DNA of 64,000 nucleotides, taken from the NCBI GenBank assembly GCA_020852755.1, contig JADZAF010000099.1, forward strand, positions 32,125 through 96,124, given 5' to 3'. Below are positions 22,036-38,971 of this stretch, piece after piece. This DNA comes from Bryobacterales bacterium (GTDB lineage: Bacteria > Acidobacteriota > Terriglobia > Bryobacterales > Bryobacteraceae). Made by a program: the position numbers and the translations under genes. Each line of letters opens with the position of its first letter. The first letter of the stretch is position 1. The notes beneath the pieces are model-generated. The model saw only the letters and a program-made list of their open reading frames with translations, did not search any database and was not told the DNA's origin.

Positions 22036-22734
22036 TCAAGCCGTCATTCCCGCCAGCGCGCTCAAATCCAGCCGCCCCGTGTAGATGGCCATGCCGAGGG
22101 CGGCGTGAATGCCCAGCCGCGTCAGTTCCCGGATCTCCTCCAGCGTGGTGATGCCGCCGGCGGCGGTGAGTTCCAGACCGGTGGCGGCGCGCAGGCGGCG
22201 GAACCACTCCAGATCGGTGCCCTGCAGCATGCCTTCCTTGTCCACATAGGTACACAGGAACCCCGAGCAGTAGGGCTCCAGCTGTTTCAGCACCTGCTCC
22301 GCCTCCAGGTTGGTGGCCGAGCGCCAGCCCTTCACCACGATGCGGCCGCCTTTGGAGTCCAGCGCCACGATCAGGCGCTCGCGTCCGGCGGCCGCCGCCA
22401 GGGCTTCCAGAAACTCGCGGTTGATGCCGTCGGAATGAAACGCGGCCGTCCCGACGATGATCCTGTGCGCTCCCTGTTCCACCAGGTCCCGGGCCCGCTC
22501 CACCGAACGCACTCCGCCCCCGGCCCGCACCACCGCGCGCGAAGCCAGCAGGCGCACGATCTCCCCGTTGGAGCCTCTGCCCATGGCGGCGTCCAGGTCG
22601 ATCACCTGGATCTGGGGAAACGCGCGGAACCTCTCCAGCATCTCCAGGGGGCCCTCGGCCTCCAGCGCCTTTTCCCGGCCTTGCACCAGCTGGACGACCT
22701 TGCCGTCCATCAGGTCGATGCAGGGAATGATCAT
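22036..22734 (-). CDS. hisA: 1-(5-phosphoribosyl)-5-[(5-phosphoribosylamino)methylideneamino]imidazole-4-carboxamide isomerase
   Basis: [19 protein letters not shown]... Overlaps the hisF stop by 4 nt (ATGA). Confidence 0.9.
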
Positions 22735-23492
22735 GTCATCCGCACCGGAATGCCGTGGCGGCACAAGGTCTGCTTCAGTTCGGCGATCGAATACGTGCCG
22801 TAGTGGAAGATCGAGGCCGCCAGGGCGGCGTCGGCTTCCCCTTCCGTCAGCACCCGCACGAAGTCTTCCGGCTTTCCGGCGCCTCCCGAAGCGATCACCG
22901 GGATATGGGTGGCTCGCGATACCGCCCGGGTCAGTTCGCAGTCGAAGCCCTGCTGCACGCCGTCGGTGTCCATGGAGGTGAGCAGGATCTCGCCCGCGCC
23001 CAGCTGCTCCCCGCGCACCGACCACTCGACCGCGTCCATGCCTTCATCCACGCGTCCGCCTCGGGTGTACACGTGCCACTGGTCCTCGCCGTGCCGCTTG
23101 GCGTCCACCGCCAGGACCACGGCCTGCGAGCCGAATTCCTGGCTCAGCTCGGCGATCAGTTCGGGACGGCGCACCGCGGCCGTGTTCACCGAGACTTTGT
23201 CCGCCCCGGCCATCAGGATGCGGCGCGCGTCGGCCACCGAGCGTATGCCGCCCCCGACCGTCAGGGGAATGAAGACCTGGCGCGCCGTTCGCGCCACCAC
23301 GTCGGCCATGGTTTCCCGGTCGTCGCTGGATGCCGTGATGTCCAGGAATACCAGTTCGTCGGCGCCTTCGCGGTTGTACCTCTCGGCCAGTTCCACCGGG
23401 TCGCCCGCGTCGCGCAGGTTCACGAAATTGATGCCTTTGACGACCCGGCCTCCGGTTACGTCCAGGCAGGGAATAATCCGTTTGGCGAGCAT
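22731..23492 (-). CDS. hisF: imidazole glycerol phosphate synthase cyclase subunit
   Basis: [20 protein letters not shown]...[13 protein letters not shown]... Confidence 0.9.
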
Positions 23493-23495
23493 AAT

Positions 23496-24089
23496 CTATA
23501 GCTCCACGAAGTTTCGCATGATCTGAAGCCCCAGGTCTCCCGACTTCTCCGGATGGAACTGCACGCCGAAGACGTTGCCGCACTCGAGCACCGCCGTGTA
23601 GGAGACTTCGTAGGTGCAGGCGGCCGCCGTAGCGTCGATCACCGGGGCATAGTAGCTGTGGGCAAAGTACATGTGAGGCTGCGGGCCCAGCCCGGCCAGC
23701 AGTCTCGAGGGACGCACCGGCTCCAGGTTGCTCCAGCCCATGTGGGGGACGCGCGCCGTCAGGGGGAAGCGGCGTACGGCGCCGGCATAGAGTCCCAGCC
23801 CCGCCAGGCCCGGCGCCTCCTCGCTGCCCGTGAACAGCGCCTGCAGGCCCAGGCAGATGCCCAGAAAGGGTACGCCTTTCAGGATCAGATTGAGCAGCGG
23901 GCCGCGCACCTGCATGGCGTCCAGCGCCCGGATCATCTGCCCGAAGTGCCCTACCCCCGGCAGGATCAGCTTGCTCGGGTCGCGCAGACCGTCGGCATCG
24001 CGCACCAGCTCGTACGGCGCGCCCACTTCTTCCAGCGTGTTGGCCACCGAGCGCAGGTTCCCGGCCCCGTAATCCAGGACGGCGATCAT
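23496..24089 (-). CDS. hisH: imidazole glycerol phosphate synthase glutamine amidotransferase subunit
   Basis: [15 protein letters not shown]...GICLGLQ...FHPEKS is a class-I GATase triad context. Confidence 0.9.
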
Positions 24090-24673
24090 AGCAGCCCCTT
24101 GGTGGACGGCAGTTCCCCCCTGAGCCGCCGGTCCTTCGAACAGGCGAACTTCATGGCCCGCGCGAAGCACTTGAAGATCGCTTCCAGCTTGTGGTGGCTC
24201 GAGCGCCCGTAGAGCACGCGGGCGTGCAGGTTGGCCCCGGCGTGCTGGACGAAGCCGCCGAAGAAATCCTCCACCAGCTCCACGTCCAGGTCGCCCACCT
24301 TGCGAACCCGCACCAGGTCCCGGTAGACCAGCGCCGGCCGCCCTCCCAGGTCCACCGCCACCACGGCCAGGGTCTCGTCCATGGGCATGACGAAGTAGCC
24401 GGCGCGGTTGATGCCGCGGCGGTCGCCCAGCGCCTTGGAGAATAGCTGCCCCAGCACGATGCCGGTGTCTTCCACGGTGTGGTGCTGGTCCACATGCAGG
24501 TCGCCGCGCGCCTCCAGCGTCAGATCGAAGCCGCCGTGCCTGGCGAACAGTTCCAGCATGTGGTCCAGGAAGCTCACGCCGGTGGAGATCTGGTAGCGGC
24601 CCCGCCCTTCCAGTTTCAGTACCCCGCGAATGGCTGTTTCGCGCGTCTCCCGTTGGATGCTTGCGGTTCTCAT
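24086..24673 (-). CDS. hisB: imidazoleglycerol-phosphate dehydratase (monofunctional)
   Basis: [25 protein letters not shown]...FLDHML... About 196 aa with no fused phosphatase domain. Confidence 0.9.
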
Positions 24674-25344
24674 AGCACGCTCTCCAGCCCGTTGATGTCG
24701 TCGAGCACGGCGATGGCCTTCTGCTCCTCGAACAGGCGAACCAGTTCGCCGTGGCGCGGGTTGGCGGGCGAGGCGATGCCGATGAAGGGCGCCCCGGCCG
24801 CCAGCGCGCAGCGCGCATCGTCCACCGAGTCGCCCACGTAGTAGAGGCCGCTGCCCGGATGGAGGGAGCGGATCAGCAGCAACCCCTCGGGGTGCGGCTT
24901 CAGCCGGCTCACCTCTTCCATCCCGACAATGGGGTCGAAGGCCACTTGTGGGATGAATCGCCGCAGTGTGAATTCCGCCTCCCATTTCAAACGCCCCGTG
25001 AATACCGCCAGCCGGAAGCGCTCGCTCAGCCTCTCGAACAAACCGTCCGCGGCGATCCAGCGCTCGCGCATGATGAGGCCGTTGGTCCCGTCGCCGTGGA
25101 AGATGGACTGGAAGTAATCGACCACCGTCTGGAACTCGACCCGCACGCCCGCCTCCGCGATCAGCTTGTGGGAGAGCGACCAGTCGTCGTTCCACCCGCC
25201 CTGGTTCTTGATGTCCTGGATCAGGGTGCGGCTGGGCCGCTGCCCGGTGAAGTGCTCCACCGTCTGCTGGATGGTTTCGCGATAGGATTCGGTGACCTCC
25301 ACCAGCACGCCGTCCATGTCGAAGACCAGCAGGCAATTCACCAT
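24670..25344 (-). CDS. HAD-superfamily hydrolase (candidate histidinol-phosphatase)
   Basis: HAD motif I at the N-terminus, [10 protein letters not shown], and a downstream motif IV ([13 protein letters not shown]). It is embedded between hisC and hisB with 4-nt overlaps. Confidence 0.7.
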
Positions 25345-26441
25345 ATCTTCTCCAGTTCGCCCAGGAAACGCCGCACCTGCTCCCGGGTGCCTACCGTCAC
25401 GCGCACGCAGCCGGGGATCTCGTAGCTGCGGTCGCGCACCAGCACGCCCTGTTCCCTCAGGCGGTCGCGGATCTGAACGGCCCGCCGCCCCAGCCGCATC
25501 AGGATGAAGTTGCCCATGCTGCGGAAGTACGGGATGCCGAGCAGTTCCAGCCCCACGCCCAGCAGTTCGCGGGCGGCCAGCACCTCGGCCACGTACTCCT
25601 CCACGTAGGCCCGGTCGCGCACCGCCTCCACCGCGGCCAGCGCCGCCAGCGCGTTCACGCTGTAAGGCGATTGCGCCTTGTGCAGGAAGGCGATGTTGGC
25701 CGGCTGCGAGAACAGGCACCCCAGGCGCAGCGCCGCCATCCCGAACACCTTCGAGAACGTGCGGCTGACGAACAGGTTGGGGCTGCGCTCGATCAGCGGC
25801 AGCCCGGTGATCCCGCAGAACTCGAAGTAGGCTTCGTCGATCAGCACCGCGGCGTTGCGCGCGCGCTTCAGGATCTTCTCGATGGCCGGCAGTTGCACCC
25901 CGGTGCCGGTGGGATTGTTGGGATTGGCGATCAGGATCGCTTTGGTGGAGGGGCCGATGGCGGCCAGCAGTTCCTCCAGCGGAAAGGCCAGGTCTTCCGG
26001 GCGGTAGTCGATCTCGCGGATGCAGGCGCCCGCCACCTCCGCATAAAAGCGGTACATGGCGTAGGCGGGACGCAGCACCACCACCTCGTCGCCCGCGTTG
26101 GCATACGTGTTGACCAGCAGCTGGATGGCCTCGTCGGTGCCGTTGGTCAGAAGCATCTGCTCGGGCCTGACCCGGAAGAACTCGGCCAGCGCGGGCCGCA
26201 CCTGGCTGTACTCGGGGTAGACCGCCATGTGCTCCGCCGTGAGGTTCCCCTTCAGAAATTCGAGCACGCGCGGCGAACAGCCCAACGTGTTCTCGTTGAA
26301 ATCCAGCCGCAGCTTGCCGGCCCGCCCGTCCGTCGGGGGCGAATAGGGGGCCATGTCGAGCACGGATTGCCGCGGGCGCGGCATGCCCTTGCGCAACCGC
26401 GGAGTCTTAGCCACGGCGGCCTGCCTCCGCTGCCCGCGCAC
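25338..26441 (-). CDS. hisC: histidinol-phosphate aminotransferase
   Basis: Class-I aminotransferase motifs NPNNPTG and [16 protein letters not shown]. The start is uncertain: Met codons at 26441, 26387 and 26357 are all possible. Confidence 0.85.
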
Positions 26442-27687
26442 GGGGCGCCGCGGTCCTCGCCTCGACCGAACGGGCGTGCGCTTCCAGGCCCTCCGTCCTC
26501 GCCAGCGCCGTGATCGACGGCGCCAGCGAACGCAGGCCTTCCGCGCTCAGCTTCTGGACGGAAATCACCTTGACGAAATCCGCCGCCGAAAGCCCGCCGC
26601 GCAGCCGCGCCGCGCCGTTGGTCGGCAGCACGTGGTTGGGGCCGGACGCGTAATCGCCGGCGGCTTCGGGACTGAACGGGCCGATGAAGATGCTGCCGGC
26701 GCTGGTGATCCCGGCCAGCAGCGACTCGTCCGGAATGCTCAGGTGCTCCGGAGCGAACCGGTTGGAGATCTCCACCGCCTCGTCCAGCCTCCGCACCAGC
26801 ACGATGGCGCTGTTACGGTCGATCGAACGCCGGGCCACGGGCGCGGTCGGCAGGTCGCTCAGACGCCTCTCGATCTCCACCGCCACCGCCCGCGCCAGCC
26901 GCCGCGAGGGGGTCAGCAGGAAGGCGCTGGCATCCACGTCGTGCTCGGCCTGTGCCAGCATGTCGGCGGCCAGGCGGGCCGGGTCGCCCTCCTCCGCGAT
27001 GATCAGGATCTCCGTCGGGCCGGCAATGAAATCGATGCCCACCTCCCCGGCCAGCAGTTTCTTGGCTGCCGCCACGTAGATGTTGCCGGGGCCCACGATG
27101 CGCTCGGCCCGGGGCACCGTCTTCGTCCCGTACGCCAGGGCCGCGATGGCCTGCGCGCCGCCCATCTGGAACAGGTGCGTCACGCCCAGCCAGTGCGCCG
27201 TGCCGAGAACTGCCGCCGTGGGACGCGGGCAGGCCGCGCAGACCGTCTTTACCCCGGCCACCTGCGCGGGGATCACGGTCATCATCAGCGTCGAGGGCAG
27301 GGGATAGCGGCCGGCTGGGATGTAGGCGCCCACGGTCTCCAGCGGCCGCACGATCTGTCCCACTCTCAACCCGCGGCTCAACTGCCGCTGCTGCTCGCAG
27401 GGCAGCTGCATGGCCGCGAAGGCCCGGATATTGCCGGAGGCCGTTTCCACCGCGCGGCCGAATCCGGACGGCATGGTCCGGGCGGCCGCCTCCAGTTCCG
27501 CTTCCGGCACGCGCACGGAGCGGCCCTCGAAGCCGTCCAGCTTGCGCGCGTATTCCAGCAGACCGCGGTCCCCCCGCTTCTTCACCGCCTCCAGGATGGG
27601 CCGCACCACCGCTTCCGCCCCTTCCATGCGGGCAGCCCGCCGCGCGAAGAGCCTTTCCAACCCCGTGGATTCAAGGACTCGTATCAT
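26407..27687 (-). CDS. hisD: histidinol dehydrogenase
   Basis: About 426 aa, with HisD-typical ...AGPTE.../...DMLAQAEHD... motifs. Confidence 0.9.
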   Translation of the reverse strand: MIRVLESTGLERLFARRAARMEGAEAVVRPILEAVKKRGDRGLLEYARKLDGFEGRSVRVPEAELEAAARTMPSGFGRAVETASGNIRAFAAMQLPCEQQRQLSRGLRVGQIVRPLETVGAYIPAGRYPLPSTLMMTVIPAQVAGVKTVCAACPRPTAAVLGTAHWLGVTHLFQMGGAQAIAALAYGTKTVPRAERIVGPGNIYVAAAKKLLAGEVGIDFIAGPTEILIIAEEGDPARLAADMLAQAEHDVDASAFLLTPSRRLARAVAVEIERRLSDLPTAPVARRSIDRNSAIVLVRRLDEAVEISNRFAPEHLSIPDESLLAGITSAGSIFIGPFSPEAAGDYASGPNHVLPTNGAARLRGGLSAADFVKVISVQKLSAEGLRSLAPSITALARTEGLEAHARSVEARTAAPRARAAEAGRRG

Positions 27688-27692
27688 AGGCG

Positions 27693-28559
27693 CTACATGA
27701 CGATCTTGTTGAGCGGATACTCGACGATTCCCTCGCCGCCCGCCTGCTTCAGGCGCGGGACAATGCTGCGCACCGTCGATTCATCGACGATGGTGTTCAC
27801 CGCCAGCCAGTCCTCGTCGCTCAGGTGGGACACCGTCGGCCGTTTCAGCGCGGGCAGCACGTTGAGAACCGCTGCCAGGTTGTCGCGGTGCACGTTCAGC
27901 ATCAACCCCACCTTGCCCAGAGCCGCGATGGCGCCGTCCAGCAGCATGCGCATGTCCTCCAGCTTGCGCCGCTTCCACTCGTCCTGCCAGGCGTCGCAGT
28001 TGACGATCAGCTGGGTGTTCGATTCCAGCACCGTGTCGATGATCTTGAGCTTGTTGGCGCGCAGCGACGAGCCCGTCTCGGTCACCTCCACGATGGCGTC
28101 GGCCAGCACCGGCGGCTTGACCTCCGTGGCGCCCCAGCTGAATTCCACCTTGGCCTTCACCCCGTGCGCCGCCAGGTAACGCTTGGTGGTCTCCACCAGC
28201 TCGGTCGCGATGATCCTGCCTTCCAGGTCCCGCACGCTGCGGAAGGGTGAAGCCTCCGGCGCCGCCAGCACCCAGCGCACCTTGCCGAAGCTCTGCTTGG
28301 CGTACACCAGGTCGGCCAGAGCGATCACCTGGGCGCCGCTCTCCTCCACCCAGTCGCGGCCGGTGAGCCCCGCGTCCAGAATGCCGTCCTCCACGTAGCG
28401 CGCCATCTCCTGGGCGCGGATGAGCATGCACTCGATTTCCGGGTCGTCGATGCGCGGGAAGTAGGAGCGGCTGCTGGTGGTGATGGAGTAACCCGCCCGC
28501 CGGAACAGGTCGATGGTGGCGTTTTCCAAACTGCCTTTCGGGATGCCGAGCTTGAGCAT
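27693..28559 (-). CDS. hisG: ATP phosphoribosyltransferase (long form)
   Basis: [12 protein letters not shown]... N-terminus and a 288-aa long-form length. The start overlaps the hisI stop. Confidence 0.9.
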
Positions 28560-28939
28560 CACTTCTGCCCTCCGTAGACCGCCCCCGGCACGTAGCTGGG
28601 CGCTTCCGACTCCACCCAGCGGCCTTCGCTGAGCGAGCGGTAAAAGCAGCTCCGGTAGCCGTTGTGGCAGACGCCCGGCCCCAGGGCCTCGACCTGCACC
28701 AGCACGGCGTCCCGGTCGCAGTCCGTGGATATCGATTTCACCGCCAGGCGGTGCCCCGAGGTCTCGCCCTTCATCCAAAGCTTCCGGCGCGAGCGGCTGT
28801 AAAACGTGGCGAAGCCCGTCTCCACGGTTTGCCGGAAGGCCGCTTCGTTCATGTACCCGACCATCAGTACGCGGCCGGAGGCGTGGTCCTGAATCACGGC
28901 GGTCACCAGACCGCCGGCTTTGTCGAAGTCCAGATCCAT
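28559..28939 (-). CDS. hisI: phosphoribosyl-AMP cyclohydrolase
   Basis: ...[17 protein letters not shown]...WMKGETSGH... is conserved HisI. Start placed at the ATG (MDLDFD...); the track's upstream TTG extension is less likely. Confidence 0.85.
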
Positions 28940-28949
28940 TGAGCGCAAC

Positions 28950-28978
28950 AAAAAAGCCCGCCATCTTTCGTGGCGGGC
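28950..28978 (-). terminator. his attenuator terminator: GCCCGCCA-cgaaaga-TGGCGGGC stem followed by UUUUUU (read on minus strand)
   Basis: An 8-bp GC stem with a 7-nt loop and a 6-U run lies immediately 5' of the hisI start, inside the leader region. Coordinates are accurate to about +/-1. Confidence 0.7.
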
Positions 28979-29023
28979 GTCCTTTCCTTTTACGATTTCG
29001 AGTGAGTTCGAAGCGCGCGCCCG

Positions 29024-29077
29024 TCACACGATGGCGTGGTGGTGATGAGGATGCCGGGCGCTGCGAACTGCTAACAT
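29024..29077 (-). CDS. hisL: his operon leader peptide [17 protein letters not shown] (His-codon attenuator)
   Basis: Minus-strand ATG TTA GCA GTT CGC AGC GCC CGG CAT CCT CAT CAC CAC CAC GCC ATC GTG TGA is preceded by SD GAGGAA. Five of 17 codons are His, four of them consecutive. A terminator follows, and the overlapping segments GCGCCCG/CGGGCGC/CGCCCG allow alternative pairing. Confidence 0.75.
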
Positions 29078-29096
29078 GAATTCCTCAGTATATCAG

Positions 29097-30404
29097 ATGC
29101 CCCGATTCTCTGCGGCTGTCCTGGCGGCTGCTGCTGGTTGGGCGGCCCTGGCTTCGGCCCAGAGCCGCTGGGACCCCGGCCGGGCCGCCGCGCAATCCAT
29201 CTCCGAACAGACCGGCGGCCGCCTGAAACTGCGCGGCGAATTCCGCTCCCGGATGGAAGCCCGCACCGGCGTCGGTTTCGGACGCGAGACCGGCATCGAG
29301 AACCCGCTCTTCCGCACCCGCCTGGGCATGGAGTATCAGGCCGCCCCCTGGCTGAAGCTGGCGGGCCTGGCGCAGGATTGCCGCGCCCCTCTCTATGGAC
29401 GCCCGGCGCCTGCATCGGCCCGCGACACCCTGGACCTGCACGAAGGCTACCTGGAGTTCTTCCCCGGCCGCAAGCGGGGTTTCGGCGCTCTGCTGGGCCG
29501 CCAGATGCTCAGCCTGGGCGAAGGACGCGTGCTGGGAATCTCCAACTGGGCCAATACCTCGCGCACCTACGATACCGCCCGCTTCTACTATCGCCTGCCC
29601 AACGCCCGGCTGGAGGTCCTGCTGGCTTCCTTCGTCAAGCCGCGCAGCAGCGAGTTCAACCGCCCCGGACTCGGCGACCGCTTGTGGGGCACCTACAACT
29701 CCTTCTCGAATTGGCTTCCCAAAGGCGTAGTCGAGATCTACGCCTTTCGGCGCGATCAGAACCGGCCGGGAGGTTTCTCCGGAACCGGCCGGCTGGGAAT
29801 CAATACCCTGGGCGTCCGCGTGGCGGCGCCTCTTGCCGGCGCGCTGCGCTACAGCCTCGAAACCGCCGTGCAGTCCGGCAAGGTGGGCGAGAAACCCCAG
29901 CGAGGCTTCGCCTGGTTCTCCAACCTCTCCCGGCCGGTCCGCCTGCGCTGGCCGGTCGATCTCTCCATCGAGTACAAGTATGCCTCCGGCACGGACGATC
30001 CCGGCGGCGGCCGCAGCACGACTTTCGATCAGCTCTACGCCTCCAACCACGACAAGTTCGGCCACGCCGACCTGCTCGGCTGGCAGAACATCCACAACCT
30101 GCGCTCCCTCAACACCGTGCACTTCACCAAGGGCCTGGTGCTCAACCTGATGTACAACAATAGCTGGCTGGCCAGCGCCCGCGACGCGCTCTACAACGGG
30201 CAGGGGCGCGCGATCGCGCGGGCTCCCAGGGGGGATGCCGGGCGGCACATCGGCCAGGAACTCGACCTGTACGCCGTCAGTCAATGGGGCGGCATCCAGT
30301 TGGGCGCCGGCTTCGCCCACTTCTTCGCCGGCGGGTTCCTGAGGCAATCCACTCCAGGGGTCAACACACGCTACCTGTACGTGTTTCAGAGCTACACGTT
30401 CTGA
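29097..30404 (+). CDS. alginate export family outer-membrane beta-barrel protein
   Basis: Signal peptide MPRFSAAVLAAAAGWAALASA, then beta-strand-rich sequence with alternating aromatics and a C-terminal ...YVFQSYTF barrel terminus. Start moved to the second Met because the first ATG overlaps the hisL start (CATG). Confidence 0.65.
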   Translation: MPRFSAAVLAAAAGWAALASAQSRWDPGRAAAQSISEQTGGRLKLRGEFRSRMEARTGVGFGRETGIENPLFRTRLGMEYQAAPWLKLAGLAQDCRAPLYGRPAPASARDTLDLHEGYLEFFPGRKRGFGALLGRQMLSLGEGRVLGISNWANTSRTYDTARFYYRLPNARLEVLLASFVKPRSSEFNRPGLGDRLWGTYNSFSNWLPKGVVEIYAFRRDQNRPGGFSGTGRLGINTLGVRVAAPLAGALRYSLETAVQSGKVGEKPQRGFAWFSNLSRPVRLRWPVDLSIEYKYASGTDDPGGGRSTTFDQLYASNHDKFGHADLLGWQNIHNLRSLNTVHFTKGLVLNLMYNNSWLASARDALYNGQGRAIARAPRGDAGRHIGQELDLYAVSQWGGIQLGAGFAHFFAGGFLRQSTPGVNTRYLYVFQSYTF

Positions 30405-33385: not shown

Positions 33386-36300
33386 CTACCCGTTTTCCCC
33401 CGCGGTTCGGGCGATCTGAAGGAGATAAAAGCGCAGCATATCCTGCTGCCGTCCGGAGAGGGCCTGCTCCTCGATCCGGATAATCTGCTTCACTTCCTTC
33501 ATCGCCCGGACCACGCTGGTGGGAAGCTCCACCGAGCCCCGGGGCATTGACGACAGGTATTCGAAAGCCGCCCGCAGAAAGTGCTGCAGCGAATCCTCGG
33601 CCGGCCCGCTCAGGAACGTCGCCACCTCGCGCGGCTTCTTGGAGATGCCGGAGGTGAAGGGCATCTCGGAAACCGGTGTGCGTTGAGCGATCGAGTGCAG
33701 CGCCGTGGCCAGTTCCACGAAGCTCGCCACGCGCGTGAATACCGGTTCCTGCAGCAGCTCCCAGGCCTTCTCGCGCCAGCCCCGGATCTTTTCCGGAAGC
33801 TCCAGCAGCCGTTCCACCTCCCCGCGCCAGGAGGCCGGCACCCCGCCCCCGATCTCCCGCAGCAGCGCGCCGGCGCTGGTGTTGAAGAGGTCCGGCTGCA
33901 GCAGCACCGCCAGGTCCGGCCGCAGCGCCGGCAGCAGCCGCGGGATGAAGCGATCACCTTCGAAGAACTCGGCCACTTGCACGCCGTGCCGGCGCACCAC
34001 TTCCTTTTGGAACAGCGGGATGGTGGTCCGGATGGAATCCACGTCTTCGCGCAGCAGGGTGAAGGCCGAATTGCCGGCCGGGAACGCGCGCTCCATGGCG
34101 CCCAGCCAGCGCAGCTCCACGTCGTGATAGAGCCGCAGCGAATGCAGGATCTCGTAGACCGGAAGGTGCGGCAGGATCCTGCCGGACAGCATGCCCTCGC
34201 CTTCCCCCTCCGAGGACGGGGTTCGGGCGAACGAACTCAGCGTCCGGAACAGCCCGGTGGTCAACTGGTTGATGCCCAGCAGCAGGGTCTGGGCCTGGTT
34301 GTGCCCGATGGCCCGCAGCGAGCTGCCGTGCCGCGCCAGGGGCACGGTGGCCGCGATCCGCTCCAGGATCTTGTGTCCCCGGCTGGCGGCCACTCCCGGA
34401 GCCGGCCGCACCGTCGGCCGGTCCCGCAGCGGCGGCAGCGTCCGGGCGATGAAGTACGAGATCGCGTAGATGCCCACCACGTCCTCTTCGCGGCCGTAGA
34501 GGATCCGGCGGAAGTTTTCCGCCGCGAGTTTCATGAATTCGTCGAACAGTGGGTCCTGCAATCCCACCGTCAGGCGCCCCAGCTCCTGGAGACCGCGATT
34601 GGTGAATTGGAGCCGGGTTTCCGTCAACGGCTCCGCCGCGCGGCGCAGCTCGTTGGCCGAGAATCGCTGGGCCTGCGTCAGGTGATACAGCACCTGCGCC
34701 AGTTCCTCCACGGGCAGGTGCCGCAGCCGTTCCGCCAGGTTGCTCTGGAAGGTCCGGAGGTCGCCGCTGGCGAACAGTCCCATCAGGGGCGTGGCGGCAT
34801 AGCGCGCGCTGCGCTTGGCCGAAGCTTCCACGAGCCTGCCCAGGGCGGCTTCATTCTCGGAAGTCAGGATGAAGGCGCGCCGGCCGGAGATCGGCGCCAG
34901 GTAGCCGCCCTGCCGCTGCATCGGCTCGCCGCTGCCCATCTTGATGCGCACCTGCCCCACCAGGCCGCGCTCGGCCAGCCAGCGCACGATCTCGTACTTC
35001 GCCTTTTTGAAGGCGGCCAGCCCGGCGGTCTGGCCGACCTGCTGGCTCAGATCCGAGCCGGCGATGAAGACCTCGCACACCATGTCGGAAAACCGCTCCT
35101 CGGTGCTCTCGTTCAACCGGCGGCTCTGGATGGCGTAGTCCCACAGCTTTCCCAGGTAGGCCGGCACGTTGCGCACCACTTCCAGGTCCTCATACAAAGG
35201 CACCAGCCAGATGGAAGGCAGCTCCGGGCAGCCCGAGCGCAGCGCCTGCTCGCGCTTGGCCCGGATCTTGCGGTCCAGCGAGATCAGCGCTTCGGCATCG
35301 GACGCCATGCTCACCTGCAGCGCCAGCACCATGCCGGGGTTGCCCTGCCGGCCCGAAATCTCGTTGATCTCTACAATGTTGTGCACCGTGGTGTCGATGG
35401 CGAAGGGATCCGGCGAGGTCACCAGGTTCTGATGGATGCGCGGCGTGATCACGAAGCGCCGCAGCAGGTCGCGGTAGCCCGCCGCGGCCAGGGCGAATTC
35501 ACTGTCCCGGACGTGCTTGCGCAACTCGCCCAGGTGCGCCCGCAGCGTCTTGCGCAGGGCTTTGTTCAGCGCGAAGTAGTGTTCCAGGGTCTGCCGCCGC
35601 TGCCGCCGCAGTTCCAGCATTCGCCGCTCCAGGCGGTCGTTATGCTCCCACAGCGAGACCACCGGGTCCTGCGCCAGGCGCAGCTTCATCCCCAGCCTGC
35701 GGACTACGCCCGGCCGCACGTCGTAGGGGAGCAGGCCGCGGTAGCGGCGCTCGAGCTGGTGGGTCAGATCGGTGATCGCGTCGAATAGCGCACTGAAGCG
35801 CCGGTTGGCCATCGGCAGCCGCCGCACTTCCTCCACCAGGTTCGGATCCACCGGAAGAGCCGGGTTGGCCCTCAGGAGCATGGCCAGCAGCCGCCCCAGC
35901 CGGGCGCAATTCTCCATCAGCACCGTCGCCACCAGGCGGTGCCCCTGCCCCGACGGCCGGTTGCTGCCGTCCCAATCGCCCCAGTAGGAGAGAAAGGTGG
36001 GGCACTCCGTGGCGGAGCTGAAGCGGGCGAAATCCTCTGCCGCGATCATCGCGTCCAGGTCCAGCAGCAATTCAGTGCCTTCACCCCGCGAGTCGATCGC
36101 CACGTTGAGTCCCAGAAACTCGCGCGCCAGTTCTCTCGCCAGCGGCTGCTCCAGTTCGTCCGCCGGCCGGCCCGCGGTCAGGTTGGCGACGGCGCGCTCC
36201 CAGAGCATCTCCGACTGGATCGAGTACATCTGGGTGGGGTGTACGGTGCGATCGAAAAGCCGCTGCCGGAATGAAACCTGCCGGCGCCCCAGGTCGTCCT

Positions 36301-38971
36301 TGACCAGTTCCTGGTCCAACTGCTGTTCGAGCTTCCTGCCGTCGTCCGCCCGGGCCAGGGCCAGCCACTCCTGGGCCAGTTCCAGGCGGTCCCGGAAGCG
36401 CGAACCGAAGACCTCCAGGCGGTCGTTCAGGAACTCCCCCGGAGAGGCCGCGTCCGCGCTCCACTTGGCGGGCGCGTTCAGTTCCTTCAACTCCCGCCCG
36501 ATGCGCTCCCGGCAGGACTCGGCCACCCGGCTGCTGAAGGCCGCCCACTGCCGCTCCCGCTCGGCTCGCTCCACCCCCTGGTAGAGGCGCCGGCTGGAAA
36601 CGGCCAGCCATTTCCGGTTGTAGTGGGATTCCTCTTCCGCGATCAGCCGGTTCAGATCGATCAGGACGCGGCGGGTCTTGGTTCGAAGCCGGTCCGCGCC
36701 GTCCGTGCCGCCCAGAGTCAGCCGGAACGATTTTCGCGCGGTCTCGAAGCCCTCTTCGGTACGCGCGAAGGTGGAAAGCGGGACGAGGCCGATTCCCTGG
36801 CGCGCCAGTCCCGAGGCGATCCAATCCAGCGAGATTCCCGCCGGGAGCTGCCGCAGCGTCATGCGCGGATACATGCTGCCCGCCGGGCGGGTGAGCGCGA
36901 TCCCGAAGGGATTGCGTTCCGAAGGCAGACCGGCCGCCGCCGTCTCGAGCGCGCTCATCCGCTCCTCGAAGATCGCGTTCCGCAGCCGCCAGTACGAGTT
37001 GGTGCTCTGCGCTCCCTTGCGGTAGAACAGGTAGGCCAGCAGCATCGCTCCGATGTTCGGCGCGATGGTGCTGTTGACGGCTTCAAACCGCCGGTGCAGC
37101 TCCGCGTCCCGGATCTCGATCACCGAAAGCCGGGCGCCCGCCAGGCAATCCGTCTTCGAGAGCGAATGCACCGTGACCACCCGGCCGGCCTGTTCCGCCG
37201 TGAGGTAGCCCCGGCCCGCCAGGTCGTCGGCCAGTTGCCGCAGCGTGGCGGGTCCCTGCAATTCCCTGGAAGGCGCCACGTTCTGGTAGGAAAGGTCGTC
37301 GATCACCAGCACCCCGCGCTCCAGGAAATGCCGGAGCAGGGTGCGCAGCGCCTCTTCGGAAAAGACCTGGCCGGTGGCGTTGTGCGGGTTGTTGAAGACC
37401 ACCGCTCCGTGATTGCGCCACGCGGGGTCCCCGGCCAGCCGCTGCTCGACCGCCTCGATCATCCGCTCCACGTCCAGTTCAAACTCCGGGGTAAGGGGAA
37501 CCGCGGTCACTTTCGGGAAGCAGTGTTCGTAGGTCCAGCTCAGGTCCGGAATCACCACCTCCCGGATCCCGCAGTGGAACCCGAGCAGGCTGAGACCGGT
37601 GCGCGCCGATCCGCTCACCGCCATGCAGCGGTCGAAGCGGTACTCCGGGTGATGCCGCAGGAAAGCGGCAAGGAAAGCGCCGGGCAGTTCCGCGTGCCGG
37701 GCCGGCAGCGCTTCGAGCAGTTCGAGGAACCCCAGCCCCTCGAAGGGATCGCCGATGAACGAGTCGCGCAGCGCGGGCTCCCACAGTCTCTCCGCCCGCT
37801 CCGCGGCCCGCGCGGATGCCGCATCCAGCCGCTGTTCGATCCTCTCTCCCCAGGCGCTCGAAATCCGGGCTGCCCTGGCCTGGATCGCGGCAATGGCCGC
37901 TCCGGCCGCCCGGTAGGCCCCCTCCAGAACCGCATGGTTTTCGTCGTACAGCCGTTCCTCCGCCTCCGGCCGGGTTTCCAATTTCGGCAATCCCCGCTTC
38001 AGCAGAAAGGTCAATAGTTCGACTTCGGCCGCCGAGGGAGTGCCCTTCACTTGAAAGTGCAAGGTCTCGATCATCCGGATGAATTCGTCGAAACCGGCGA
38101 TGAAGACCGTGGACAGTTCCTTGAGGCGCGGGGAGAAGATGCCCGGAGTGAGGAACCGCAGGGTGCGGTGCATCATCTTCGCTTCCCGCGCCACCGACAG
38201 GTGGTTCGGGGCGTCGTTCACCTCCACGATGAACAGCGGGTAGTCGCGGCTGATCAGCCGCAGCCTGCGCCGCGTCTCTTCCGGAAGAATCCTGCCCAGC
38301 AGCACGAAAGACGGCCGGACCCCATTGGGCGCCAGGGAGGTTTCCAGCAGCGTCGCGGCGGCGCTTTCGTTTTCGGGAAGCGGATGCAACCGGAGCGCCT
38401 CAAACTGCCTCAGGTGAGGCGGAATCCGGATCCCGTGCGTGAAGATGGTCGCCGGCAGGTGCTCCAACTGCGTCGAGAGGGCGTGAAAGAAGACCCGCAG
38501 CGCCTCGTAGATCCCGCCCGACGCCAGGATCACTTCCCGCCGCCCGGTCTTCTCGCCGAAATCGTAGGTCAGCGGCTCCGGCTGTTTCGCCAGCCACTCG
38601 CCGAACAGCCGGATCAGCTCCCCCGGCTTGTTCTTCAGGAATCCGCCCCGCGGCAGATACGGCGCGCTGTTCCGGATGAGGTTCAGCAGGAACTCGATTT
38701 TGCCCCGGTCTTCCGCCTCCCAGCCCAGCTCGGCGCTCAGAGCCTGCGCCAGGTCGCCCGTCCCCGCCTTCTCTCCCCCTTCCAGTCCCAGCGCGATTCG
38801 GGCATACAATTCCGCCAGGCGCGGGTCCTGCACCGGGTTGCCGATATGGAAGTTGACGCGCTCTTCGGGCGGCGCGGGCGAGGACGCCGTGGCTTCGCTG
38901 ATCTCCGAAACCACCGCGGCCTTCACCGGCCGCAGGGCAAAGACGTCGGGTGAACTCTCACGCATGCGCAT
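33386..38971 (-). CDS. 1861-aa multidomain protein: class-I/II PLP aminotransferase-fold domain(s) fused to a C-terminal divergent PEP-carboxylase-like domain
   Basis: Aminotransferase motifs at residues 527-534 (NNPHNATG) and 603-615 (SLSKTDCLAGARL), with VNFHIGNPVQDP near the N-terminus. C-terminal region: GRQGNP (cf. PEPC GGDRDGNP), VPLYEDLEVVRNVP (cf. VPLFETxxDLxNA), FIAGSDLSQQ (cf. MIGYSDSAKD), KMGSGEPMQRQGG (cf. FHGRGGSIGRGG), and a C-terminal ...IARTAGENG (cf. ...IAAGMRNTG). Confidence 0.65.
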   Translation of the reverse strand: MRMRESSPDVFALRPVKAAVVSEISEATASSPAPPEERVNFHIGNPVQDPRLAELYARIALGLEGGEKAGTGDLAQALSAELGWEAEDRGKIEFLLNLIRNSAPYLPRGGFLKNKPGELIRLFGEWLAKQPEPLTYDFGEKTGRREVILASGGIYEALRVFFHALSTQLEHLPATIFTHGIRIPPHLRQFEALRLHPLPENESAAATLLETSLAPNGVRPSFVLLGRILPEETRRRLRLISRDYPLFIVEVNDAPNHLSVAREAKMMHRTLRFLTPGIFSPRLKELSTVFIAGFDEFIRMIETLHFQVKGTPSAAEVELLTFLLKRGLPKLETRPEAEERLYDENHAVLEGAYRAAGAAIAAIQARAARISSAWGERIEQRLDAASARAAERAERLWEPALRDSFIGDPFEGLGFLELLEALPARHAELPGAFLAAFLRHHPEYRFDRCMAVSGSARTGLSLLGFHCGIREVVIPDLSWTYEHCFPKVTAVPLTPEFELDVERMIEAVEQRLAGDPAWRNHGAVVFNNPHNATGQVFSEEALRTLLRHFLERGVLVIDDLSYQNVAPSRELQGPATLRQLADDLAGRGYLTAEQAGRVVTVHSLSKTDCLAGARLSVIEIRDAELHRRFEAVNSTIAPNIGAMLLAYLFYRKGAQSTNSYWRLRNAIFEERMSALETAAAGLPSERNPFGIALTRPAGSMYPRMTLRQLPAGISLDWIASGLARQGIGLVPLSTFARTEEGFETARKSFRLTLGGTDGADRLRTKTRRVLIDLNRLIAEEESHYNRKWLAVSSRRLYQGVERAERERQWAAFSSRVAESCRERIGRELKELNAPAKWSADAASPGEFLNDRLEVFGSRFRDRLELAQEWLALARADDGRKLEQQLDQELVKDDLGRRQVSFRQRLFDRTVHPTQMYSIQSEMLWERAVANLTAGRPADELEQPLARELAREFLGLNVAIDSRGEGTELLLDLDAMIAAEDFARFSSATECPTFLSYWGDWDGSNRPSGQGHRLVATVLMENCARLGRLLAMLLRANPALPVDPNLVEEVRRLPMANRRFSALFDAITDLTHQLERRYRGLLPYDVRPGVVRRLGMKLRLAQDPVVSLWEHNDRLERRMLELRRQRRQTLEHYFALNKALRKTLRAHLGELRKHVRDSEFALAAAGYRDLLRRFVITPRIHQNLVTSPDPFAIDTTVHNIVEINEISGRQGNPGMVLALQVSMASDAEALISLDRKIRAKREQALRSGCPELPSIWLVPLYEDLEVVRNVPAYLGKLWDYAIQSRRLNESTEERFSDMVCEVFIAGSDLSQQVGQTAGLAAFKKAKYEIVRWLAERGLVGQVRIKMGSGEPMQRQGGYLAPISGRRAFILTSENEAALGRLVEASAKRSARYAATPLMGLFASGDLRTFQSNLAERLRHLPVEELAQVLYHLTQAQRFSANELRRAAEPLTETRLQFTNRGLQELGRLTVGLQDPLFDEFMKLAAENFRRILYGREEDVVGIYAISYFIARTLPPLRDRPTVRPAPGVAASRGHKILERIAATVPLARHGSSLRAIGHNQAQTLLLGINQLTTGLFRTLSSFARTPSSEGEGEGMLSGRILPHLPVYEILHSLRLYHDVELRWLGAMERAFPAGNSAFTLLREDVDSIRTTIPLFQKEVVRRHGVQVAEFFEGDRFIPRLLPALRPDLAVLLQPDLFNTSAGALLREIGGGVPASWRGEVERLLELPEKIRGWREKAWELLQEPVFTRVASFVELATALHSIAQRTPVSEMPFTSGISKKPREVATFLSGPAEDSLQHFLRAAFEYLSSMPRGSVELPTSVVRAMKEVKQIIRIEEQALSGRQQDMLRFYLLQIARTAGENG

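Follow-up and report, generated by a model that had tools for sequence, protein, structure and literature searches.

A conserved His-codon leader element and predicted attenuator upstream of the his operon in Bryobacterales and other Terriglobia (Acidobacteriota)

Within the window, by which is meant the whole 64-kb stretch of Bryobacterales DNA that was analysed, a complete his operon of nine genes lies on the minus strand directly downstream of a short leader element. The upstream neighbour of the element is a divergent gene for an outer-membrane protein of the Pfam family Alginate_exp, and the CATG described earlier as common to the leader ATG and the longest form of this divergent ORF (29076) is present. 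An alternative ATG of the Alginate_exp ORF, at 29097, gives a more typical signal peptide. Among the neighbouring genes there was neither a HisR-like regulator nor another comparable amino-acid operon. The features of the leader and the operon are, in the order of transcription:

29095..29087, minus strand: putative extended -10 promoter element TGATATACT, with TG at 29095..29094 and the hexamer TATACT at 29092..29087, 9 nt before the leader ATG.
29086..29081, minus strand: GAGGAA, formerly proposed as a Shine-Dalgarno (SD) sequence, located past the -10 box and ahead of the ATG; probably not a functional SD.
29077..29024, minus strand: leader ORF, hisL-like, 17 codons plus TGA, with the ATG at 29077..29075 and the stop at 29026..29024.
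29069..29054, minus strand: segment 1 (AGUUCGCAGCGCCCGG), 5' strand of a predicted anti-antiterminator or pause hairpin in the minimum-energy fold of the window sequence.
29053..29036, minus strand: putative regulatory His codons, CAT (codon 9), CCT, and CAT CAC CAC CAC (codons 11-14).
29028..29018, minus strand: segment 2 (UGUGACGGGCG), 5' strand of the predicted antiterminator, which includes the stop UGA and pairs with 28979..28969.
29012..28997, minus strand: small hairpin UUCGA-ACUCAC-UCGAA obtained by folding, between segments 2 and 3 and enclosed by the antiterminator helix.
28979..28969, minus strand: segment 3 (CGCCCGCCACG), 3' strand of the predicted antiterminator, overlapping the terminator 5' arm.
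28978..28950, minus strand: intrinsic terminator, stem GCCCGCCA / UGGCGGGC with the 7-nt loop CGAAAGA, followed by U6.
28939..28559, minus strand: hisI, the first operon gene (NCBIfam and Pfam).
28939..22036, minus strand: his operon, consisting of hisI, hisG, hisD, hisC, a HAD hydrolase gene, hisB, hisH, hisF and hisA (NCBIfam and Pfam).

The codons of the leader ORF are ATG TTA GCA GTT CGC AGC GCC CGG CAT CCT CAT CAC CAC CAC GCC ATC GTG TGA, and the sequence-only reading that five of the 17 codons are His, four of them consecutive, agrees base for base with the window sequence. This is the sole site with at least five His in seven codons in all six frames of the 64 kb, where shuffles expect 0.04.

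Related loci were collected by a scan for HisI with one genome per species, and the best 80 loci, with a HisI identity of 61-83%, were kept. Almost all of them are labelled Acidobacteriota, chiefly Bryobacteraceae, Solibacter-like or other Terriglobia metagenome-assembled genomes, and two of the loci have other taxon labels. Nearly all of the best 80 loci have a short ORF rich in His that stops 62-80 nt ahead of hisI. A strict test demanded a TAnnnT hexamer placed 6-11 nt ahead of an ATG, an ORF rich in His, and a hairpin of the form CCCGC...GCGGG with a T-run. It was passed by 64 of the 80 loci as well as by the window, and shifted or reverse-complemented control regions gave 0/75, 0/77 and 0/77 as compared to 61/77 for the real hisI upstream regions. 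The aligned family used below consists of 65 sequences, the 64 relatives and the window, and the covariance model R1 was built from the 64 relatives with the window left out. R1 matches the window at full length (model positions 1-128) at 29077..28948 on the minus strand with 80.1 bits and an E-value of 5.9e-21, the next best R1 match in the 64-kb window having 16 bits, and among the 16 loci rejected by the strict test the model detects the element directly before hisI in 14. Homologous short ORFs were in this way recovered from 64 regex-positive and 14 model-positive related loci. The His-codon run and the terminator, whose conservation in related genomes had been named as decisive for the sequence-only reading, are both part of the element that 78 of the best 80 related his loci carry, and in one of the two remaining loci (L078) a contig end interrupts the sequence. 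As judged by these sequence comparisons, the element is real and is conserved in the his loci of Bryobacterales and other Terriglobia (Acidobacteriota).

The terminator is composed of a 5' arm GCCCGCCA at 28978..28971 and a 3' arm TGGCGGGC at 28963..28956, which by the terminator scan form a stem of 8 pairs, 7 of them G-C, followed by T6 at 28955..28950. Folded alone it has an energy of -17.7 kcal/mol (z = -4.8), and 0/200 shuffles were equally stable. It begins 45 nt past the leader stop, and 10 nt separate the last T of its run from the hisI ATG (28939), in accordance with what had been claimed for it. Since the upstream neighbour is divergent, it is not the terminator of a preceding gene. 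The core stem is kept in 65/65 aligned sequences, and the U-run is conserved across the family with 5-8 U.

The start of hisI has no SD in the window, and an SD was found in only 7/65 relatives. The hisI gene starts 4-16 nt after the U-run in most loci and 30-130 nt further downstream in several, where hairpin and U-run are unchanged, and the terminator hairpin may also hinder the translation of hisI. One explanation of the element would place its action mainly there, the hairpin 11-33 nt before the SD-less hisI start blocking 30S binding until a stalling ribosome opens it, with termination secondary or absent. The missing SD fits such a mechanism, as does the distance of 4-16 nt, which places the hairpin within reach of the initiating ribosome, and leaderless short ORFs with translational attenuation are documented in mycobacteria, where the polycysteine ORFs act on translation (10.1101/834739). 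A hairpin followed by a conserved run of 5-8 U is however the signature of an intrinsic terminator, and the loci with the more distant hisI keep both parts unchanged, and a mainly translational mechanism is considered unlikely here. Transcriptional and translational effects could coexist, and the reading followed below is that of attenuation by transcription termination.

Across the family the leader peptide varies from 14 to 25 residues with 3-8 His, and His makes up 23.6% of the residues in the 65 leader peptides as against 2.0% in the genes of the window. The spacing of the ATG and the conserved CGGG of segment 2 varies between 39 and 63 nt and is a multiple of three in 41/53 family loci. 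This in-frame length variation, together with the enrichment of His codons, suggests that the leader ORF is translated. CAU accounts for 65% of the His codons in the leaders. Its share is 18% in the window genes (Fisher p = 3e-32 for the excess in the leaders) and 28% in the hisI genes that these leaders precede. The preference could be due to selection for the wobble-read codon or to avoidance of G+C where the stretch must stay unpaired.

The Rfam family His_leader (RF00514) had no match at E <= 10 in 28000..30000, T-box had none at E <= 10 in the same interval nor at gathering score in the window, and no Rfam family reached its gathering score anywhere in the 64-kb window. The sole local Rfam match, to Thr_leader with 22 bits, aligns only the terminator and was set aside as one that terminators in general would give. 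In other phyla his genes are commonly controlled by a T-box or by HisR, according to the relevant passages of PMC9413887, which speaks for a sensor other than the ribosome, whether T-box-like tRNA-sensing RNA, metabolite-sensing RNA or RNA-binding protein, with the His codons being incidental. The leader of about 125 nt is however too short for a T-box, neither T-box nor any other Rfam family accounts for it at E <= 10 or at the gathering thresholds, and what is conserved from the promoter to segment 2 is an in-frame ORF, rich in His and beginning with ATG, and not a structure, which makes a sensor of this kind very unlikely.

The three segments for which alternative pairing had been proposed are all present, GCGCCCG at 29061..29055, CGGGCGC at 29023..29017 and CGCCCG at 28979..28974. 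In the alignment they correspond to three conserved GC-rich segments, of which segment 1 (CCGUCGCCCGG) stands just before the His run, segment 2 (GCGACGGGCG) follows it, and segment 3 (CGCCCGCCGC) contains the terminator 5' arm. RNAalifold on the MAFFT alignment returned the 7-bp terminator core alone, because the variable-length ORF and loop regions align too poorly, and the named helices were tested individually in place of de novo RNAalifold prediction. The proposed 2:3 pairing (CGGGCG with CGCCCG) was correct and extends to about 10-11 bp, between 29028..29018 and 28979..28969. In the family alignment 78% of the cells of this antiterminator helix are paired, a share that drops to 35-47% if the partner is displaced by 1-3 columns. 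Its covariation score of 0.161, compared with 0.097 for shuffles that ignore sequence relatedness, was reached by 0/500 of these. Compensatory changes occur at two pairs, both flanking, namely 113:176 (GC 21, UA 12, CG 4, AU 2) and 104:185 (GC 36, CG 7). The segment 3 columns of these pairs, 176 and 185, covary with segment 2 and are mostly unpaired in the terminator, and because they mostly lie outside the terminator stem the covariation signal is specific to the antiterminator. The covariation supports a predicted antiterminator formed by segment 2 and the terminator 5' arm. Hairpins like the small UUCGA-ACUCAC-UCGAA hairpin were seen by eye in relatives, for instance UUCGACCCAUAUCGAA.

The pairing of segments 1 and 2 was less well anticipated. 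The register GCGCCCG with CGGGCGC forms a perfect 7 bp in the window, although in the family it is 66% paired and does not differ from shuffles. The 1:2 helix of the family is instead CCGUCGC with GCGACGG, which is supported by covariation, is 74.5% paired and has UA 21 and CG 15 at pair 41:107, with a shuffle control that ignores phylogeny. Read from the alignment, the window forms 4/7 pairs of this family register, one of them a G-U wobble. In the minimum-energy fold of the window, segment 1 (29069..29054) has a longer pairing, with 29027..29005. The energies in the window are -22.6 kcal/mol for the antiterminator, -17.7 kcal/mol for the terminator and -24.3 kcal/mol for the 1:2 hairpin. For the window sequence alone the antiterminator and 1:2 folds were no stabler than shuffles (z about -1.1 and -1.2), the whole leader having z = -1.0, and the support for these two predicted folds is entirely comparative.

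Pair 41:107 couples the second position of a Val/Ala codon to the synonymous third position of an Arg codon, and because a Val/Ala change is thereby linked to a synonymous Arg change, a constraint on the RNA is argued for. The same pair bears on the suggestion that the product of the ORF is itself functional, a His-rich micropeptide that might for instance bind metals, and that the hairpin is no more than its terminator. His-rich peptides can bind metals and the ORF is conserved, but pair 41:107 keeps RNA pairing and not peptide sequence, the residues conserved outside the His run (R..., RRA) coincide with the GC-rich pairing segments, the peptide varies from 14 to 25 residues, and the element is always found immediately upstream of hisI; a functional micropeptide is on these grounds highly improbable. 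A chance His-codon run beside an ordinary terminator, for which the many hairpins formed by GC-rich DNA and the weak single-sequence fold z-scores might be cited, is refuted by the comparative data (78/80 related loci, 0 control regions passing, R1 E-value of 6e-21) and by the 0.04 such His runs that shuffles expect per window, and is hardly credible.

The end of the ORF in the window differs from that of its relatives. The typical family peptide ends in ...RRA(L/V)(F/S)*, and in most relatives segment 2 is read as CGA CGG GCG, whereas the stop codon of the window is a CGA-to-TGA change relative to the family and the UGA falls within segment 2. The C-to-U change that creates this UGA is matched by a G-to-A change in segment 3 (CCGC to CCAC) and by a U in the terminator 3' arm, and among the aligned sequences the triple U, A, U in segment 2, segment 3 and 3' arm is found in the window only. 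Because the stop-creating change is compensated in segment 3 and in the 3' arm, both alternative helices are preserved in the window. A ribosome terminating at the UGA of the window would mask segment 2 no less effectively than one does in the relatives.

The effect of ribosome position on the alternative pairings was modelled by folding. In equilibrium folding of the full-length leader the terminator was lost with a ribosome footprint on the first His codons and retained with one on the later ones. Because the equilibrium fold keeps the terminator at the later His codons, the switch would have to be kinetic, as in classical models. Full-length equilibrium folding with footprints was set aside as ambiguous, with doubtful pairings across the ribosome and a pairing of segment 1 with the 3' arm. 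In the test that replaced it, only the RNA existing before the 3' arm is transcribed was folded, and the output was the probability that the 5' arm is sequestered. With the ribosome on the His codons the median over the 65 loci was about 0.86, with 64/65 loci above 0.7 and the window at 0.83-0.98, and with the ribosome at the stop codon the median was 0.39, as was the value for the window. With the ribosome left out, the 5' arm is still sequestered in many loci under the equilibrium model (median 0.79), the 2:3 pairing often being preferred. The 1:2 'superattenuation' step is not evident from the thermodynamics, and the branch from no translation to termination is the least supported of the modelled branches. 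It must rely on the order of folding, because the equilibrium model without a ribosome often prefers 2:3. For the 1:2 pairing, equilibrium folding showed no preference over 2:3 in many loci.

Initiation on the leader ORF appears to differ from what had been proposed from the single sequence. The family does not keep the GAGGAA to which an SD role was assigned, and only 2/65 members have anything SD-like at positions -16..-4 relative to the leader ATG. What is conserved in the same region is TGnTAnnnT, which was found in 61/65 aligned members, the hexamer TATACT itself in 39, with a wider consensus of T-n-TG-n-TATACT. Between the hexamer and the ATG there are 8 nt in 39 of the 65 sequences, while 18 have 9 nt, 7 have 10 nt and one has 7 nt. 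The sequence further upstream of the -10 element is not conserved and the neighbouring genes differ between loci. The leader lacks a good -35, and a promoter scan therefore gave no sigma-70 site with two hexamers there. The promoter call rests on the conserved extended -10, and the TGnTATACT element would act as the promoter.

A -10 box is found 7 +/- 1 nt ahead of the start of transcription in other bacteria (PMC3896937), and leaderless genes are recognised by a TANNNT that begins some 12 bp ahead of the start codon (PMC3160421). The gap from -10 to ATG is here 1-3 nt longer than the usual 6-7 of leaderless genes (PMC3160421, PMC3896937), from which a 5' UTR of 0-3 nt is predicted. A UTR of 1-3 nt and a true 5'-AUG are equally likely, and in both cases the predicted leader transcript is too short at its 5' end to hold an SD. 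A -10 element a few nt before the ATG, with a gap of 8-10 nt in 64/65 sequences, and the absence of an SD are the sequence marks of leaderless genes, and the leader mRNA is probably leaderless or nearly so. The layout TGnTAnnnT-N6-9-ATG recurs at the predicted starts of five other genes of the window, which suggests that leaderless initiation is common in the source organism.

The core of the sequence-only reading, namely a His leader peptide, a terminator and a competing antiterminator before a his operon, is corroborated by the conservation in 78/80 loci, the covariation of the antiterminator and the identity of the downstream genes. The hallmarks of an attenuator are found together, a His-rich leader before the his operon, a terminator between the ORF and hisI, and an antiterminator that excludes the terminator, and on bioinformatic grounds the element is very probably a ribosome-mediated transcription attenuator of the his operon. 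In the proposed mechanism, transcription would start at the extended -10 (TGATATACT) close to the ATG, giving a 5' UTR of 0-3 nt, and the 17-codon ORF would be translated without a Shine-Dalgarno. When His-tRNA is scarce the ribosome would stall on the His codons (29053..29036) and cover segment 1, leaving segment 2 (29028..29018) free to pair with segment 3 (28979..28969) once the latter is made. The 2:3 pairing would sequester the terminator 5' arm, and RNA polymerase would continue into hisI-hisG-hisD-hisC-...-hisA. When His-tRNA is plentiful the ribosome would reach the UGA (29026..29024) inside segment 2 and mask that segment, the terminator hairpin (28978..28956 and U6) would form, and transcription would end 10 nt before hisI. 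If there is no translation, segment 1 would pair with segment 2 and the terminator would again form.

A more specific form of the mechanism is given about even chances of being right. The his leader of Bryobacterales would then be leaderless (UTR of 0-3 nt), with ribosomes loading at the 5' end of the nascent RNA, and the same hairpin would gate the translation of the SD-less hisI, which would make the element a combined transcriptional and translational, SD-independent attenuator. Such an attenuator may belong to a broader class of leaderless sensors of amino acids in Acidobacteriota.

In a 2010 survey, almost no predicted attenuator of Acidobacteriota had an assigned function, as stated in the relevant part of PMC2965389. 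The element offers a concrete, testable function for the leader of the his operon in Acidobacteriota, an abundant and poorly understood soil phylum, and adds one more lineage to the independently recognised His leader peptides, pointing to recurrent evolution. It is also a well-defined RNA family that Rfam lacks, and the 78 related loci, the alignment and the covariance model R1 could serve for its curation and for annotation. If the leaderless start is true, SD-less attenuation would be known beyond the Actinobacteria, where the pertinent sections of the papers cited below describe it, and the element would be a compact natural His-responsive switch of about 150 bp including the promoter.

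The designation 'classical' given in the sequence-only reading holds for the textbook logic of the attenuator and not for membership of the enterobacterial His_leader family, RF00514 being unmatched at E <= 10. A search of the full-text literature found no description of an acidobacterial his attenuator, which is not proof of absence. The element is uncatalogued and without a matching Rfam family, and the attenuation mechanism itself is textbook. It has in common with hisL of E. coli and Salmonella (RF00514) a short ORF with a run of His codons, a terminator just before the first his gene, and a stall-dependent pairing that sequesters the 5' arm. The window has 5 His among 17 codons (3-8 His in the family) versus 7 consecutive His in enterobacterial hisL, the first gene is hisI here and hisG there, and the host phylum here is Acidobacteriota. 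The ORF here abuts the promoter without an SD, whereas enterobacterial hisL is SD-led. The leader peptide, the terminator and the antiterminator make up the his attenuator logic of the window, and the same logic is described in the relevant passages of PMC3896937 and PMC9413887.

Candidate His-leader attenuators have also been proposed in Firmicutes, where those of the Bacillus cereus group, Peptostreptococcaceae and Erysipelotrichales are treated in the corresponding section of PMC9413887 and a hisS/hisZ His leader of bacilli in that of PMC2965389. As far as these sections go, the Firmicutes leaders resemble the present element in being lineage-specific, in having 3-5 His codons with terminator and antiterminator hairpins, in lacking a match to RF00514, and in being based on comparative genomics only. 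They belong to another phylum and leaderless initiation is not mentioned in those sections, and the likeness to the window is one of description. The closest parallels for a leader ORF without a ribosome binding site are actinobacterial, namely the ilvB leader of C. glutamicum (Morbach 2000, as cited in the relevant passage of PMC4046766) and the mycobacterial polycysteine ORFs. These sense Val (ilvB) and Cys (polycysteine) in a different phylum. Like the element as predicted here, they have a sensory short ORF whose start coincides with the transcript 5' end or adjoins it, ahead of an operon for amino-acid biosynthesis.

The leader ORFs of the his leader element are biased in how they spell histidine. 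In the leader ORFs of the window and of the related loci L001-L079, CAU makes up 65% of the leader-peptide His codons (211 CAU, 112 CAC); its share is 18% for genes of the window and 28% for hisI at the same loci. This bias could have a role in decoding speed or in keeping the stretch unstructured. At one locus (L074:2830-2965) the His-codon run, CAT CAC CAC CAC CAT, lies in a different reading frame from the -10-proximal ATG. R1, the covariance model built from 64 relatives without the window, nevertheless gives the RNA element there 46 bits; the shift may be an assembly indel, or the leader may be decayed or frameshifted.

The terminator and its surroundings vary as well. Seven relatives (L014, L021, L029, L031, L033, L038 and L045) have an extra GC-rich inner hairpin within the terminator loop, with terminators of -20 to -27 kcal/mol, and the terminator of L052 is present as a tandem duplicate. 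On either side of the terminator of the window lie:

28980..28987, minus strand: GGAAAGGA, a purine tract adjoining the terminator on its 5' side, also in relatives at the corresponding position
28937..28955, minus strand: hisI start region, without a Shine-Dalgarno sequence, the start being 10 nt past the terminator U-run

The alignment shows the purine tract to be kept in about half of the 65-sequence family. Its pairing with the U-run can extend the terminator, and such pairing leaves the conserved G residues of the tract unaccounted for. An SD-like motif precedes hisI in only 7 of the 65 related loci, and hisI translation may also be affected by the terminator hairpin.

Two other genes of the window were noted:

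24670..25338, minus strand: HAD-superfamily hydrolase, TIGR01548-like (below its cut-off), between hisC and hisB
33386..38971, minus strand: 1861-aa ORF, from the Pfam scan

The hydrolase is a candidate for the histidinol-phosphate phosphatase step. For the long ORF, Pfam gives a single match at E <= 1e-5, to an aminotransferase class I/II domain in its middle part (residues 434-757); the other approximately 1500 residues have no match at that threshold.

Upstream of the leader, the divergent gene has two possible starts:

29076..29097, plus strand: alternative Alginate_exp start codons, ATG 29097 versus ATG 29076

The start is probably ATG 29097 (MPRFSAAVLAAAAGWAALASAQS, signal-peptide-like) rather than 29076. 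Since the 5' end of the gene overlaps the his leader promoter whichever start is used, the two divergent promoters must, from their positions, be interleaved.

The distance from promoter to leader ATG differs in two relatives:

L046:2867-2989: leadered variant, from leader ATG position and R1 match
L060:2863-2989: leadered variant, from the same two features

Here 17-19 nt separate the TATACT box, the hexamer of the extended -10 element, from the leader ATG; L046 carries AGGAA. With R1 scores of 77-79 bits, both are, as judged from sequence, leadered variants of the same element. Elsewhere in the window, a motif scan picked out five ordinary genes whose predicted ATG is preceded, at a distance of only 6-9 nt, by an extended -10-like TGnTAnnnT:

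6427, plus strand: ATG
12845, plus strand: ATG
14321, plus strand: ATG
45738, plus strand: ATG
52806, minus strand: ATG

Such matches near an ATG number 8 in the window, close to the approximately 5 of a rough chance estimate, and are of note for coinciding with long-ORF starts, not for their raw number. Because of these five genes, leaderless mRNAs are suggested to be frequent in this organism.
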